Shown here piece after piece: positions 17,034 to 22,838 of a DNA stretch of 64,000 bases. Below the pieces are notes generated by a model. It had not been told where the DNA came from. It did not search any database and worked only from the letters and a program-made list of their open reading frames with translations. The position numbers were made by a program, and so were the translations under genes. This DNA comes from Escherichia coli (GTDB taxonomy: Bacteria; Pseudomonadota; Gammaproteobacteria; Enterobacterales; Enterobacteriaceae), in NCBI RefSeq assembly GCF_024700885.2, contig NZ_CP117016.1, one strand, 5' to 3'. Within the stretch, counting starts at the first letter, position 1. The number at the start of each line of letters is the position of its first letter.

Positions 17034-17474
17034 GATACCCTTCTAACAATATCTACCTTCGCCCCGTAAAAGATGGGTTTGGCAGCACACTTGCCCTATA
17101 TCTACTCATTTTTACTGCAACAGGTTGAAATCTCAGCACTGTCAGAAAGCGCTGATGACTAAACAGCCCTGGGCCGGGCGATGTAACCATCACACAGAAT
17201 CCTGATAGCGAAATATGGCGTGACTCGATACTTCACTCTGCAATGCATTCCTTGATGAATTCGCAGGCCCGTGATACACGGGACAGGTCGCTGAATGACG
17301 ACAATGTCCTGGAAATCAGCGAACCGCGTATCCGGAGTACATTTGAGCGACTGTACCAGAACATGAATGAGGCGTTTGGATTAGGTGATTATTAGTTGGG
17401 CTAAGCATTTTAGTATTATTATTTTCCGGTTGAGGGATATGGAGATATCGACAACAACCGGAAAAAGTTTACGT

Positions 17475-18722
17475 CTATATTGCTGAAGGTACAGGCGTTT
17501 CCATCACTATTTGCTCGCGTTTTTTACTCAGGAAGAAAATGCCAAATAGCAACATCAGGCAGACAATACCCGAAATTGCGAAGAAAACTGTCTGGTAGCC
17601 TGCGTGGTCAAAGAGTATCCCAGTCGGCGTTGAAAGCAGCACAATCCCAAGCGAACTGGCAATTTGAAAACCAATCAGAAAGATCGTCGACGACAGGCGC
17701 TTATCAAAGTTTGCCACGCTGTATTTGAAGACGGATATGACACAAAGTGGAACCTCAATGGCATGTAACAGCTTCACTAATGAAATAATCCAGGGGTTAA
17801 CGAACAGCGCGCAGGAAAGGATACGCAACGCCATAATCACAACACCGATAAGTAATGCATTTTTTGGCCCTACCCGATTCACAAAGAAAGGAATAATCGC
17901 CATGCACAGCGCTTCGAGTACCACCTGGAATGAGTTGAGATAACCATACAGGCGCGTTCCTACATCGTGTGATTCGAATAAACCTGCATAAAAGACAGGA
18001 AAGAATTGTTGATCAAAAATGTTATAGAAAGACCACGTCCCCACAATAAATATGACGAAAACCCAGAAGTTTCGATCCTTGAAAACTGCGATAAAATCCT
18101 CTTTTTTTACCCCTCCCGCATCCGCCGCTATGCACTGGTGATCCTTATCTTTAAAACGCATGTTGATCATCATAAATACAGCGCCAAATAGCGAGACCAA
18201 CCAGAAGTTGATATGGGGACTGATACTAAAAAATATACCGGCAAAGAACGCGCCAATAGCATAGCCAAAAGATCCCCAGGCGCGCGCTGTTCCATATTCG
18301 AAATGAAAATTTCGCGCCATTTTTTCAGTGAAGCTGTCAAGCAAACCGCAGCCCGCCAGATAACCCAGACCAAAAAAGAGCGCACCCAGAATTAGACCTA
18401 CAGAAAAATTGCTTTGCAGTAACGGTTCATAAACGTAAATCATAAACGGTCCAGTCAAGACCAGAATGAAACTCATACACCAGATGAGCGGTTTCTTCAG
18501 ACCGAGTTTATCCTGAACGATGCCGTAGAACATCATAAATAGAATGCTGGTAAACTGGTTGACCGAGTAAAGTGTACCTAATTCCGTCCCTGTTAATCCT
18601 AGATGTCCTTTCAGCCAAATAGCGTATAATGACCACCACAGCGACCAGGAAATAAAAAAGAGAAATGAGTAACTGGATGCCAAACGATAGTACGCATTTC
18701 TGAATGGAATATTCAGTGCCAT
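17475..18722 (-). CDS. cscB: sucrose:H+ symporter (LacY/oligosaccharide:H+ symporter family)
   Basis: 415 aa 12-TM MFS protein beginning MALNIPFRNAYYRLASSYSFLFFISWSLWWSLYAIW…, recognised as CscB. Confidence 0.9.
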   Translation of the reverse strand: MALNIPFRNAYYRLASSYSFLFFISWSLWWSLYAIWLKGHLGLTGTELGTLYSVNQFTSILFMMFYGIVQDKLGLKKPLIWCMSFILVLTGPFMIYVYEPLLQSNFSVGLILGALFFGLGYLAGCGLLDSFTEKMARNFHFEYGTARAWGSFGYAIGAFFAGIFFSISPHINFWLVSLFGAVFMMINMRFKDKDHQCIAADAGGVKKEDFIAVFKDRNFWVFVIFIVGTWSFYNIFDQQFFPVFYAGLFESHDVGTRLYGYLNSFQVVLEALCMAIIPFFVNRVGPKNALLIGVVIMALRILSCALFVNPWIISLVKLLHAIEVPLCVISVFKYSVANFDKRLSSTIFLIGFQIASSLGIVLLSTPTGILFDHAGYQTVFFAISGIVCLMLLFGIFFLSKKREQIVMETPVPSAI

Positions 18723-18793
18723 AATTACCTGCCTGTCGTTAAAAAATTCACGTCCTATTTAGAGATAAGAGCGACTTCGCCGTTTACTTCTCA

Positions 18794-19708
18794 CTATTCC
18801 AGTTCTTGTCGACATGGCAGCGCTGTCATCGCCCCTTTCGCCGTTACTGCAAGCGCTCCGCAACGTTGAGCGAGATCGATAATTTGTCGCATTTCTCTTT
18901 CATCTGTAGATAATCCCGTAGAGGACAGACCTGTGAGTAACCCGGCAACGAACGCATCTCCCGCCCCCGTGCTATCGACACAATTCACAGACATTCCAGC
19001 AAAATGGTGGACTTGTCCTCGATAACAGACCACCACCCCTTCTGCACCTTTAGTCACCAACAGCATGGCGATCTCATACTCTTTTGCCAGGGCGCATATA
19101 TCCCGATCGTTCTGTGTTTTTCCACTGATAAGTCGCCATTCTTCTTCCGAGAGCTTGACGACATCCGCCAGTTGTAGCGCCTGCCGCAAACACAAGCGGA
19201 GCAAATGCTCGTCTTGCCATAGATCTTCACGAATATTGGGATCGAAGCTGACAAAACCTCCGGCATGCCGGATCGCCGTCATCGCTGTAAATGCGCTGGT
19301 ACGCGAAGGCTCAGCAGACAACGCAATTGAACAGAGATGTAACCATTCGCCATGTCGCCAGCAGGGCAAGTCTGTCGTCTCTAAAAAAAGATCGGCACTG
19401 GGGCGGACCATAAACGTAAATGAACGTTCCCCTTGATCGTTCAGATCGACAAGCACCGTGGATGTCCGGTGCCATTCATCTTGCTTCAGATACGTGATAT
19501 CGACTCCCTCAGTTAGCAGCGTTCTTTGCATTAACGCACCAAAAGGATCATCCCCCACCCGACCTATAAACCCACTTATTCCGCCTAATCTGGCGATTCC
19601 CACCGCAACGTTAGCTGGCGCACCGCCAGGACAAGGCAGTAGCCGCCCGTCTGATTCTGGCAAGAGATCTACGACCGCGTCCCCTAAAACCCACACTTTG
19701 GCTGACAT
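18794..19708 (-). CDS. cscK: fructokinase (PfkB/ribokinase family)
   Basis: 304 aa ORF with PfkB motifs (N-terminal GDAVVD, C-terminal DSTGAGDAF). Confidence 0.9.
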   Translation of the reverse strand: MSAKVWVLGDAVVDLLPESDGRLLPCPGGAPANVAVGIARLGGISGFIGRVGDDPFGALMQRTLLTEGVDITYLKQDEWHRTSTVLVDLNDQGERSFTFMVRPSADLFLETTDLPCWRHGEWLHLCSIALSAEPSRTSAFTAMTAIRHAGGFVSFDPNIREDLWQDEHLLRLCLRQALQLADVVKLSEEEWRLISGKTQNDRDICALAKEYEIAMLLVTKGAEGVVVCYRGQVHHFAGMSVNCVDSTGAGDAFVAGLLTGLSSTGLSTDEREMRQIIDLAQRCGALAVTAKGAMTALPCRQELE

Positions 19709-19812
19709 TTTTTTCCCTTAAATTCATCTGACTTACGCATAGTGATAAACCTCTTCTTCGCAAAATCGTCATGGATTTACTAAAACATGCATATTCGATC
19801 ACAAAACGTCAT

Positions 19813-19890
19813 AGTTAACGTTAACATTTGTGATATTCATCGCATTTATGAAAGTAAGGGACTTTATTTTTATAAAAGTTAACGTTAACA
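19813..19890. promoter_or_regulatory. divergent cscK/cscA promoter region with two identical palindromic operators (putative CscR sites)
   Basis: AGTTAACGTTAACA occurs twice (19813-19826 and 19877-19890); core GTTAACGTTAAC is a perfect 12-bp palindrome, as expected for a LacI-family operator. Confidence 0.45.
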
Positions 19891-21357: not shown

Positions 21358-21364
21358 CATAATA

Positions 21365-22360
21365 TCAGGTGGAACAACGGATCAACAGCGGGCAAGGGAT
21401 CCGCGTCACTCTTCCTCCTTCACGACCTTCAATAATATGCAATGCAGCTTCCCGCCCGATAATGTCATGTGGAAGCTGAATTGTGGTCAGCGGCGGTAAA
21501 AACAGATGCCCGACGCCAACCAGATTATCAAAGCCCATTACGGCGACATCCTGCGGGATACGTACCCCCTTCGCCAGGAGAACCTGATAAGCGACAAAGG
21601 CTGCGCGATCGTTACCACATATCAGAACATCAAAATCTGGTTTGCCAGATTTGAAGTGGTCATTGAGTAAACTTGCGAGATCGGTGTAGTGATCATCACC
21701 TGTTGCCATGTGAAATTGTTTCACCTCAGCCAGATCTCGTCCAGCATCACGCCAGGCCTGCTCAAATCCCTGCCGACGATACCCTGTTGCCAACGCACTT
21801 TCCGGTAGCCAGAAGCATAACGGTTGACGATAGCCCGCCGCGAGCAAATGCTGTGTTGATTCATATTGTGCAGTGTAATCATCAGGGATATAACTGGGTA
21901 ACGCTGGGTCATCCGCCACACAGTTCGCCAATACAATATTTTCACCATACAGAGACTCAGGCAGCGTGATATGTCGCAGCCCCATTGTAGTATAGATAAT
22001 GCCATCCGGACGGTGGGCAAGCAGCTGACGTGCCGCGCGGGCAGCGTCATCTTCAGAAAAAATATTGATTAAAAAACTATTCCAGCCGAACTCGCTGGCG
22101 GTTTGCTCAATGGCAAGCAGAATATCAACAGAGAAAGGAGTGGTAGCAGTGTCCTGCGCCAGCACGGCGAGAGTCGACGGCTTACGTCCTTGAGCGCGCA
22201 TCTTACGGGCGGAAAGATCAGGAACATAATTCAGGGTCTGGATTGCCTGCAATACGCGGTCACGCGTTGCAGGACGCACAGATTCTGCATTATGCATCAC
22301 CCGGGAGACTGTCATCATCGACACTCCCGCCAGGCGTGCGACATCCTTTAATGAAGCCAT
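21365..22360 (-). CDS. cscR: LacI-family transcriptional repressor of the csc genes
   Basis: 331 aa from MASLKDVARLAGVSMMTVSRV… (HTH then periplasmic-binding-like sugar domain); the longer track ORF (from 22558) adds an implausible N-terminal extension. Confidence 0.85.
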   Translation of the reverse strand: MASLKDVARLAGVSMMTVSRVMHNAESVRPATRDRVLQAIQTLNYVPDLSARKMRAQGRKPSTLAVLAQDTATTPFSVDILLAIEQTASEFGWNSFLINIFSEDDAARAARQLLAHRPDGIIYTTMGLRHITLPESLYGENIVLANCVADDPALPSYIPDDYTAQYESTQHLLAAGYRQPLCFWLPESALATGYRRQGFEQAWRDAGRDLAEVKQFHMATGDDHYTDLASLLNDHFKSGKPDFDVLICGNDRAAFVAYQVLLAKGVRIPQDVAVMGFDNLVGVGHLFLPPLTTIQLPHDIIGREAALHIIEGREGGRVTRIPCPLLIRCST

Positions 22361-22590
22361 ACCCAAGCCGTTTGCCGTAAAACGGGCACTGTAGCAGAAA
22401 CAGACGTCACTGGCGAGATCCAACGATATTCTCAACGCCCTATCACCCGACACGGCAATACAATAAAAAATAACAATAATTCCCGGACAATTGTGCCCAA
22501 TTCCGCCTCTGTTCTCGCCAACGAGTAACCATATAGGCAAGTAGGTAAAACATGCCAACTGGCATCGCCAACCTGGAGAAGAAAATATAA

Positions 22591-22821
22591 ATATGGATCA
22601 TTGTGCTGCCGCTGTATCCCGACATCAGCCCGGAAATTATTGCGATTGCTATCGGTTCAGGTGCGATTGGCTGCACGATCGTTACGGACTCGCTTTTCTG
22701 GCTGGTGAAGCAATATTGCGGCGCTACGCTCAATGAAACATTTAAATACTATACGACAGCGACATTTATCGCTTCAGTCGTCGCTCTGGCGGGCACATTC
22801 CTGCTGTCATTTATCATCTAA
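22591..22821 (+). pseudogene. dsdX: 3' remnant of D-serine transporter gene dsdX (GntP family), truncated by the csc insertion
   Basis: About 76 codons of hydrophobic GntP-like C-terminus (…IAIAIGSGAIGCTIVTDSLFWLVKQYCG…FLLSFII) with no N-terminal body, ending 17 bp before dsdA. Confidence 0.7.
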
Positions 22822-22838
22822 GCGCAAAGAGACGTACT

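Follow-up and report, generated by a model that had tools for sequence, protein, structure and literature searches.

The 64,000-nucleotide stretch of Escherichia coli DNA analysed here (the window) very probably carries the chromosomal csc regulon for non-PTS sucrose catabolism in its standard position, as a 5.57-kb insert between the tRNA gene argW and the 3' end of dsdX. The csc genes and the adjoining dsdX and dsdA sequences, which had been recognised from the letters alone, are confirmed, and the cluster is apparently intact and ordinary. Gene identities, order, and strands are as the original prediction had them, according to open reading frames (ORFs), NCBIfam models, and RefSeq annotation. 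The features of the locus are as follows:

16959-17033, plus strand: argW, tRNA-Arg (anticodon CCT), found by ARAGORN and the Rfam tRNA model (63 bits)
17034-17474, plus strand: left-end spacer of the insert, with the decayed remains of an internal part of a DUF4942 gene at about 17159-17386
17475-18722, minus strand: cscB, intact, sucrose:H+ symporter (LacY-type MFS) of 415 aa (TIGR00882)
18794-19708, minus strand: cscK, intact, fructokinase of 304 aa, first gene of the cscKB operon (NF006957)
19709-19923, no strand assigned: divergent cscKB/cscA control region, 30% GC
19814-19825 and 19878-19889, no strand assigned: two identical copies of the 12-bp palindrome GTTAACGTTAAC (repeat finder), putative CscR operators
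19829-19844, no strand assigned: candidate CRP-like site TGTGATATTCATCGCA, read from the sequence
19924-21357, plus strand: cscA, intact, cytoplasmic GH32 sucrose hydrolase (invertase) of 477 aa (TIGR01322)
21365-22360, minus strand: cscR, intact, LacI-family repressor of the csc regulon, 331 aa (near identity to the E. coli W protein)
22361-22603, no strand assigned: sequence upstream of cscR, reaching the right end of the insert, dsdX homology starting only at 22604
22604-22821, plus strand: dsdX 3' remnant, the last 72 codons and the stop, equivalent to dsdX nt 1121-1338 (blastn against strain 63-2)
22839-24167, plus strand: dsdA, intact, D-serine ammonia-lyase of 442 aa (TIGR02035)

The boundaries were set by blastn comparison with strain 63-2, which has the dsdCXA-type locus. 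Homology to 63-2 ends exactly at 17033, so that the left boundary is the last base of argW, and it resumes at nt 1121 of dsdX, which gives breakpoints at 17033/17034 and 22603/22604 and an insert of 5,570 bp (17034-22603). The replaced stretch had been predicted to run from 17034 to 22838; its start holds, but the inserted DNA stops at 22603, and the dsdX remnant begins with the next base. Within the insert, the 441-bp spacer is followed by cscB and cscK on the minus strand, cscA on the plus strand, and cscR on the minus strand, and then by the dsdX 3' end and dsdA; that is, cscKB lie on one strand, cscA diverges from them, and cscR converges on cscA, as both the ORFs and the RefSeq annotation indicate. 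RefSeq gives the names cscB, cscK, cscA, cscR, dsdX pseudogene, and dsdA to a 100% identical stretch in the genome elppa4, and also in GmF067. The csc genes had further been placed directly downstream of argW. They do occupy that place, but the spacer with its DUF4942 relic separates them from the tRNA gene. The relic, which matches aa 76-151 of a DUF4942 protein (282 aa) encoded by a CP4-like island in ST131 at 39 of 76 residues (tblastn), shares the spacer with a 51-aa ORF annotated by RefSeq at 17243-17395. In 2,623 genomes at least 80% of the spacer is covered, with csc alongside in all those sampled, E. coli W among them. An Rfam scan of 16500-24500 with E values up to 0.1 returned nothing besides the tRNA.

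The four ORFs all align over their full length to CscB, CscK, CscA, and CscR of E. coli W, with 2–7 amino-acid differences and none interrupted by a stop codon. CscB scores 594 bits against TIGR00882 (oligosaccharide:H+ MFS transporter; cut-off 220) and has four substitutions relative to W CscB and no stop codons. CscK (three substitutions) scores 506 bits against the fructokinase equivalog NF006957 (cut-off 450), and its closest solved structures are the fructokinases 5ey7 and 5ygg. The cscA ORF has two starts, at 19915 and 19924, and its 477 aa are counted from the annotated ATG; the product (seven substitutions) scores 477 bits against TIGR01322 (GH32 sucrose hydrolase family; cut-off 356), has 7vco as its closest solved structure (E=1.7e-173), and contains the GH32 catalytic motifs WMNDPNG (36), RDP (160), and ECP (215). 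The 331-aa frame of CscR sits within a longer ORF with a TTG start. Its NCBIfam matches are to LacI-family models, all below their cut-offs (best subfamily model, 114.6 versus 340), and its assignment to the family is instead supported by near identity to W CscR (two substitutions) and by the RefSeq label of its homologue, 'sucrose operon repressor CscR'.

The genes and their control region closely match described systems. The csc locus of E. coli W (ATCC 9637) and EC3132 (Bockmann 1992; Jahreis 2002; PMC3032704, PMC3938415) has the same four genes in the same order and orientation and shares the DUF4942-relic spacer, the dsdX remnant junction, and the operators with the window; the csc genes of W, whose functional regulon has been validated experimentally, are 98–99% identical to those of the window at the nucleotide level (1–2% divergence), and upstream of cscR the identity is 93%, with a single indel. 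The two differ in that W has a prophage (the torI end) between argW and the spacer, whereas the window has none there. In an account citing Jahreis 2002 (PMC11251922), the csc control region is described as two 12-bp inverted repeats, one on either side of the cscA promoter, together with a Crp site. The GTTAACGTTAAC pair agrees with these repeats: the pattern occurs at two places in the 64 kb, both in the cscK-cscA intergenic region, against 0.16 expected. A consensus sigma-70 scan of 16900-24400 found no promoter, a result compatible with weak CRP-dependent promoters, though no demonstration of them.

The mechanism, the operators, and the CRP dependence of csc are known from EC3132 and W, as set out in articles that cite the primary work (PMC11251922, PMC3938415, citing Bockmann 1992, Jahreis 2002). 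By analogy with those strains, CscB would import sucrose together with a proton, CscA would split it into glucose and fructose, and CscK would phosphorylate the fructose; CscR, a LacI-type protein, would bind both palindromes bracketing the cscA promoter, and activation would require cAMP-CRP. The scr PTS sucrose regulon (scrKYABR; pUR400, Klebsiella, B2 E. coli) resembles csc in having a GH32 hydrolase, a fructokinase, a LacI-type repressor, and paired operators (PMC11251922), but it depends on a porin and a PTS enzyme II, and the sugar it hydrolyses is sucrose-6-phosphate, whereas the csc locus here encodes a proton symporter and has no PTS or porin genes.

The island had been expected to allow growth on sucrose, and by analogy with W it probably does. 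On low sucrose, published csc-positive strains nonetheless show slow growth or none (PMC11251922, PMC3938415), and five csc-positive, scr-negative commensal isolates failed to grow on sucrose at all, four of them without an obvious csc lesion (PMC11251922); an intact csc locus is therefore no guarantee of a Suc+ phenotype. There is a real, if lesser, chance that csc is intact in sequence but phenotypically cryptic here, being repressed or too weak in transport at natural sucrose concentrations, such that the main effect of the allele is the loss of D-serine catabolism. Besides those isolates, the published mutations that permit growth on low sucrose point this way, namely CscB L51F, C327G, Q353H, and L363F, loss of CscR, and a csc operator mutation (PMC3938415): residues L51, C327, Q353, and L363 are all wild type in the window, which thus has none of the published CscB up-mutations, CscR is not truncated, and neither operator palindrome has a mismatch. 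Induction in E. coli W likewise requires 1% sucrose or more (PMC3938415). On the other hand, the four proteins differ so little from those of W, which grows fast at high sucrose (PMC3938415), and that the ORFs have stayed intact across about 2,600 genomes speaks for selection on function. With CscB, CscR, and the operators in their wild-type form, the sucrose concentration required for induction should be high (about 1% or more), and slow growth would be expected at low concentrations. As a strain-typing marker, the allele predicts slow, high-threshold sucrose use.

The csc layout is present in 2,646 of 5,426 complete E. coli genomes, a distribution nearly complementary to that of dsdC-dsdX (2,772 of the 5,426), and the same junction between insert and dsdX recurs in 2,664; all of phylogroups D and E and nearly all of B1 carry csc (PMC11251922). 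The locus in MG1655 reads argW, intS...torI (the CPS-53 prophage), dsdC-dsdX-dsdA-emrY, which bears out both the K-12 gene order and the role of argW as the CPS-53 attachment site given in the original prediction. The dsdCXA loci of K-12 and uropathogenic E. coli (UPEC) fill the same argW-emrY slot, and their dsdA and last 218 nt of dsdX are 98–99% identical to those of the window, but they also have dsdC, the dsdC-dsdX control region, and dsdX nt 1-1120, all missing from the window. The insert very probably arose once, in an ancestral event that took out dsdC together with the 95 bp separating it from argW, the control region between dsdC and dsdX, and dsdX up to nt 1,120; since then the csc allele would have been passed on and exchanged as one of the two allelic forms of the locus. 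The polarity could in principle be reversed, with csc ancestral at argW and dsdC-dsdX inserted later in K-12-like lineages, given that the two alleles are almost equally frequent and that neither is compositionally foreign. We regard this as very unlikely: in the csc allele, unrelated DNA runs into a truncated 3' part of dsdX that is still in frame, the signature of deletion or replacement within a once complete gene; the relic of a mobile-element gene lies on the csc side; and the dsdCXA allele retains no csc remnant, no csc segment having a match in strain 63-2.

Replacement of part of an ancestral dsdCXA locus by csc also appears to be old. Divergence from W is 0.8–2.0% in the csc genes against 2.0% in dsdA and 1.8% in emrY on the flank, and the GC content of the island is 48.1% against 48.0% for the window, with only cscB (43%) and the control region (30%) low; a base-composition comparison with the flanks, suggested along with the prediction, thus returned no anomaly and no island signature. 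Since divergence and GC content equal those of the flanks, the csc locus is an old allele rather than a recent acquisition. These same values, together with an identical junction in so many genomes, make it extremely doubtful that the insert is a tRNA-targeting genomic island acquired recently by this strain or lineage alone and still mobile, even though it adjoins the 3' end of a tRNA gene known as a phage integration site and its spacer holds a DUF4942 fragment typical of CP4-like integrative islands. Neither the ORFs nor the RefSeq annotation include an integrase at the locus, and no att-type direct repeat of the argW 3' end (at least 12 nt) was found in 16900-23000, the far boundary included. 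Two further ideas about the right junction were rejected. The 243 bp upstream of the dsdX remnant were considered as a decayed donor dsdX-like gene, but translated and nucleotide comparisons show no homology, and their likeness to dsdX in MAFFT is that of a forced alignment. A second origin was considered from the O157:H7 record TR01, in which 40 nt of csc-side DNA are replaced by 40 nt more of dsdX; this junction occurs in one of the 5,426 genomes, other O157 records have the common one, and it is a strain or assembly oddity.

The same replacement leaves dsdA intact without its neighbours, as had been predicted: ORFs, NCBIfam, blastn, and tblastn agree that dsdC and the first 1,120 nt of dsdX are gone. 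The DsdA protein scores 807 bits against TIGR02035 (D-serine ammonia-lyase; cut-off 368), contains no stop codons, and differs from the W/K-12-type protein by six substitutions. The dsdX remnant, 71 of whose 72 residues are identical to DsdX residues 374-445 (tblastn), is called a pseudogene 'missing N-terminus' by RefSeq and is a non-functional transporter fragment. Relative to a functional dsdCXA locus, then, dsdC is absent, dsdX is reduced to residues 374-445, and dsdA is whole. Neither dsdC nor the 5' part of dsdX was found elsewhere in the 64-kb window (tblastn, blastn). Neither was found on the elppa4 chromosome, which differs from the window at 15 of 64,000 positions; megablast queries containing dsdA, or chimeric for dsdCX and csc, had a single matching place there, in a check that covers chromosomal copies similar enough for megablast. 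The claim that dsdA lacks its activator and transporter thus stands for the window and for that chromosome.

Enterohaemorrhagic E. coli (EHEC) has been described as having lost dsdC and part of dsdX to csc, with D-serine toxicity and a silent dsdA (PMC7486766, PMC4366372). In EHEC O157:H7 EDL933 (z3622-z3626; same sources), dsdC and the 5' part of dsdX are likewise replaced while dsdA is intact but silent, and a DUF4942 ORF adjoins cscB, as the relic does in the window; the O157:H7 record TR01, unlike the window, has an internal stop in cscB and prophage or island genes after argW. A weak dsdA promoter lies about 115 bp upstream of dsdA (PMC7486766), a published position that the dsdX remnant should still carry. 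Expression of the persisting dsdA would be only basal without DsdC, and on this basis D-serine is predicted to inhibit the strain and not to support its growth, an extrapolation from EHEC with the same allele to a different lineage. Non-use of and sensitivity to D-serine are traits linked to niche restriction between intestinal and urinary E. coli.

The convergent cscA and cscR genes leave a 7-bp gap between their stop codons, in which no terminator-like hairpin was found. Read-through from cscA is conceivable for these two reasons, and sucrose-induced cscA transcription might, though we think it improbable, run antisense through cscR into dsdX'-dsdA in the wild type. In the available text of O'Boyle et al. 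2020, cscAp-driven dsdA expression is seen only upon cscR deletion, and no test of a sucrose effect on wild-type dsdA is reported. If such read-through occurred, it would dampen cscR expression, with positive feedback on induction, and would make D-serine deaminase expression, and hence D-serine tolerance, conditional on sucrose.

The prediction had called the arrangement described rather than novel, and rightly so: the csc replacement and its consequence for D-serine are already published (Jahreis 2002; Moritz and Welch 2006; Connolly 2014; O'Boyle 2020), the two earliest as cited in four articles that themselves describe the arrangement (PMC4366372, PMC7486766, PMC11251922, PMC3938415). The small additions made here are the DUF4942 relic in the spacer and the lack of a recognisable cscA/cscR terminator; the relic and the single-origin junction count only add detail to the published story, and the value of the finding lies in strain typing only. 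The nearest complete genome is that of a human blood isolate, and csc-type relatives are of serotypes O166:H15 and O7:H15. Extraintestinal isolates more often retain dsdCXA, and the csc allele in a blood isolate is therefore mildly noteworthy.

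The four csc genes of the window lie between argW and a 3' fragment of dsdX followed by dsdA. The original prediction of a csc island at this site was confirmed as an observation, and its reading was supported by open reading frames, NCBIfam models, and RefSeq names, with the following features at the locus:

16959-17033, plus strand: argW, tRNA-Arg (CCT), detected by ARAGORN
17475-18722, minus strand: cscB, 415-aa ORF, oligosaccharide:H+ MFS transporter (NCBIfam TIGR00882, 594 bits against a cut-off of 220)
18794-19708, minus strand: cscK, 304-aa ORF, fructokinase equivalog (NCBIfam NF006957, 506 against 450)
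19915/19924-21357, plus strand: cscA, 477 aa from the annotated ATG, GH32 sucrose hydrolase family (NCBIfam TIGR01322, 477 against 356)
21365-22360, minus strand: cscR, 331 aa inside a longer TTG-started ORF, LacI-family regulator (every LacI-family NCBIfam model scores under its own cut-off)
22839-24167, plus strand: dsdA, 442-aa ORF, D-serine ammonia-lyase (NCBIfam TIGR02035, 807 against 368)

The RefSeq annotation of elppa4, a near-identical complete genome, places the same features at the matching stretch, and in strain GmF067 they are named cscB, cscK, cscA, cscR, a dsdX pseudogene without its N-terminus, and dsdA. RefSeq naming varies by record for both cscK (“aminoimidazole riboside kinase” or “fructokinase”) and cscA (“sucrose-6-phosphate hydrolase” or “sucrose hydrolase”); the matches to NCBIfam models and PDB structures favor a fructokinase as the probable cscK product, the top solved-structure relatives of CscK being fructokinases. 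The four csc proteins are each full length and differ from their E. coli W counterparts by four (CscB), three (CscK), seven (CscA), and two (CscR) residues, and CscA, which has close relatives among solved structures, retains the GH32 motifs WMNDPNG, RDP, and ECP.

The boundaries of the island were defined against 63-2 (locus L002), a dsdCXA-type strain without a prophage at argW. Because homology to this strain stops at 17033, the final base of argW, and restarts at 22604 (nt 1121 of the 1,338-nt dsdX), the insert comprises 17034-22603 (5,570 bp). The DNA that it replaced amounts to 2,368 bp and runs from a 95-bp spacer through dsdC and the dsdC-dsdX control region to nt 1120 of dsdX. What remains of dsdX, at 22604-22821, codes for the 72 C-terminal residues of the protein (71/72 identical). 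Since dsdX is truncated in the csc allele and the dsdCXA allele of 63-2 bears no csc trace, the comparison clearly points to replacement of dsdC-dsdX by csc, not the reverse. A MAFFT alignment had suggested the region upstream of cscR as a dsdX homologue; this was rejected, the homology not proving real on re-comparison. The order claimed for K-12 MG1655 was correct (argW, intS...torI of prophage CPS-53, dsdC, dsdX, dsdA, emrY). CPS-53 occupies argW in K-12 and a prophage ending in torI does so in E. coli W, whereas argW (region 16959-17474) is unoccupied by prophage in the window. An Rfam scan of 16500-24500 returned nothing beyond the tRNA.

The csc island at argW is already known and occurs in roughly half of the E. 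coli sequenced so far; the earlier judgment that it is not novel agrees with published descriptions of the locus (PMC11251922, PMC7486766, PMC4366372, PMC3938415). The csc layout (at least 80% coverage of a 7.5-kb query) was found in 2,646 of 5,426 complete E. coli genomes, and the replaced dsdC-dsdX segment in 2,772, 200 of them with two copies. A chimeric query of dsdC-dsdX5' plus csc matched 5,634 places in 5,355 genomes; once the 200 genomes with two dsdCX copies are subtracted, no more than about 80 carry both alleles, which are close to mutually exclusive, in line with the published view. A 100-nt right-junction probe matched 2,664 genomes (2,522 at 80% coverage or more), and a junction common to so many indicates that the replacement was a single ancestral event. 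The variant junction of the O157:H7 record TR01 (L009 9994-10073), where exactly 40 further nt of dsdX stand in place of 40 nt from the csc side, was set aside as unique to that record (1/5,426 genomes), whose cscB has an internal stop. Divergence from W is 0.8-2.0% for the csc genes and 1.8-2.0% for the flanking dsdA and emrY. The base-composition comparison proposed with the original prediction gave no anomaly (island 48.1% GC, window 48.0%), the island contains no integrase ORF, and no att-like repeat of the argW end of at least 12 nt was found in 16900-23000. The island is an old, stably inherited allele, neither recent nor mobile.

Neither dsdC nor the 5' part of dsdX had a match anywhere in the 64-kb window (tblastn, blastn). 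On the elppa4 chromosome, a dsdA-containing query matched a single place and a chimeric dsdC-dsdX5' plus csc query one place only, through its csc part; therefore, at megablast sensitivity, elppa4 holds no second dsdCXA copy, and the full dsdC-dsdX elsewhere that would speak against the original prediction was found in neither sequence. Published work on EHEC with the same allele shows that dsdA is silent without DsdC, that D-serine is toxic, and that deletions removing cscR place dsdA under the cscA promoter and restore tolerance (PMC7486766; also PMC4366372).

Two features of the window add to the published story, namely a DUF4942 relic in the spacer and the lack of a terminator-like hairpin between cscA and cscR. 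The 441-bp argW-cscB spacer (17034-17474) belongs to the insert, and at 17159-17386 it contains a decayed internal DUF4942 gene fragment that shares 39/76 identical residues (51%) with positions 76-151 of a homologue 282 aa in length. That full-length protein is encoded in the distal portion of a CP4-like island, where its gene follows antirestriction and YeeU/CbtA genes. The fragment, conserved alongside csc in some 2,600 genomes, is plausibly the trace of an element that once carried, accompanied, or delivered csc; the EHEC paper treats the corresponding ORF, z3622, only as a promoter source (PMC7486766). The stop codons of the convergent cscA (plus) and cscR (minus) are 7 bp apart (21357-21365), and this gap, hairpin-free on either strand, prompts the speculative idea of transcription from the cscA promoter past cscR; it is conceivable that transcription of the two genes converges and that it reads through toward dsdA.

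The cscK-cscA intergenic region (215 bp, 30% GC) contains the palindrome GTTAACGTTAAC twice, at 19814-19825 and 19878-19889, with no further copy in the 64 kb (0.16 expected). The pair matches the CscR operators as outlined in PMC11251922 (citing Jahreis 2002), two 12-bp inverted repeats either side of the cscA promoter, and is putatively assigned as such; that outline also has a Crp site adjoining the -35 region, for which the CRP-like TGTGATATTCATCGCA at 19829-19844 is a candidate read from the sequence. A consensus promoter scan of 16900-24400 was empty. By the mechanism in the literature (PMC3938415, PMC11251922), CscB would import sucrose as a sucrose/H+ symporter, CscA would hydrolyze it in the cytoplasm, and CscK would phosphorylate the fructose, both divergent operons being repressed by CscR and activated by cAMP-CRP. 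In W, about 1% sucrose or more is needed for induction (PMC3938415, PMC11251922), and CscB positions 51, 327, 353, and 363, sites of published mutations allowing low-sucrose growth (PMC3938415), are wild type here (L51, C327, Q353, L363). Because CscB, CscR, and the operators are wild type, the strain is expected to use sucrose slowly and with a high threshold; some csc+ strains without a visible lesion fail to grow on sucrose at all (PMC11251922).

Positions 16800-24300 are 100% identical to elppa4, isolated from human blood in Taiwan, and the whole window differs from it at 15 positions, four of which (in 55596-55898) fall within an IS3-family IS1397 copy. This copy lies at 55057-56405, between ypeC and mntH. 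The remaining window is ordinary core chromosome: yfc fimbriae, fadIJ, fadL, mlaA, and yfdC lie on one side of the island, and the genes on its opposite side include emrKY, evgAS, oxc/frc, and glk. Between fadL and mlaA (13452-14720), a low-GC (about 32-34%) hypothetical ORF of 351 aa, without an NCBIfam family, precedes a short pseudogene fragment; we take this to be the yfdF position on the K-12 map. A complete chaperone-usher fimbrial operon (yfcO-type adhesin, usher, chaperone, and subunits) occupies 1-6107 on the minus strand.
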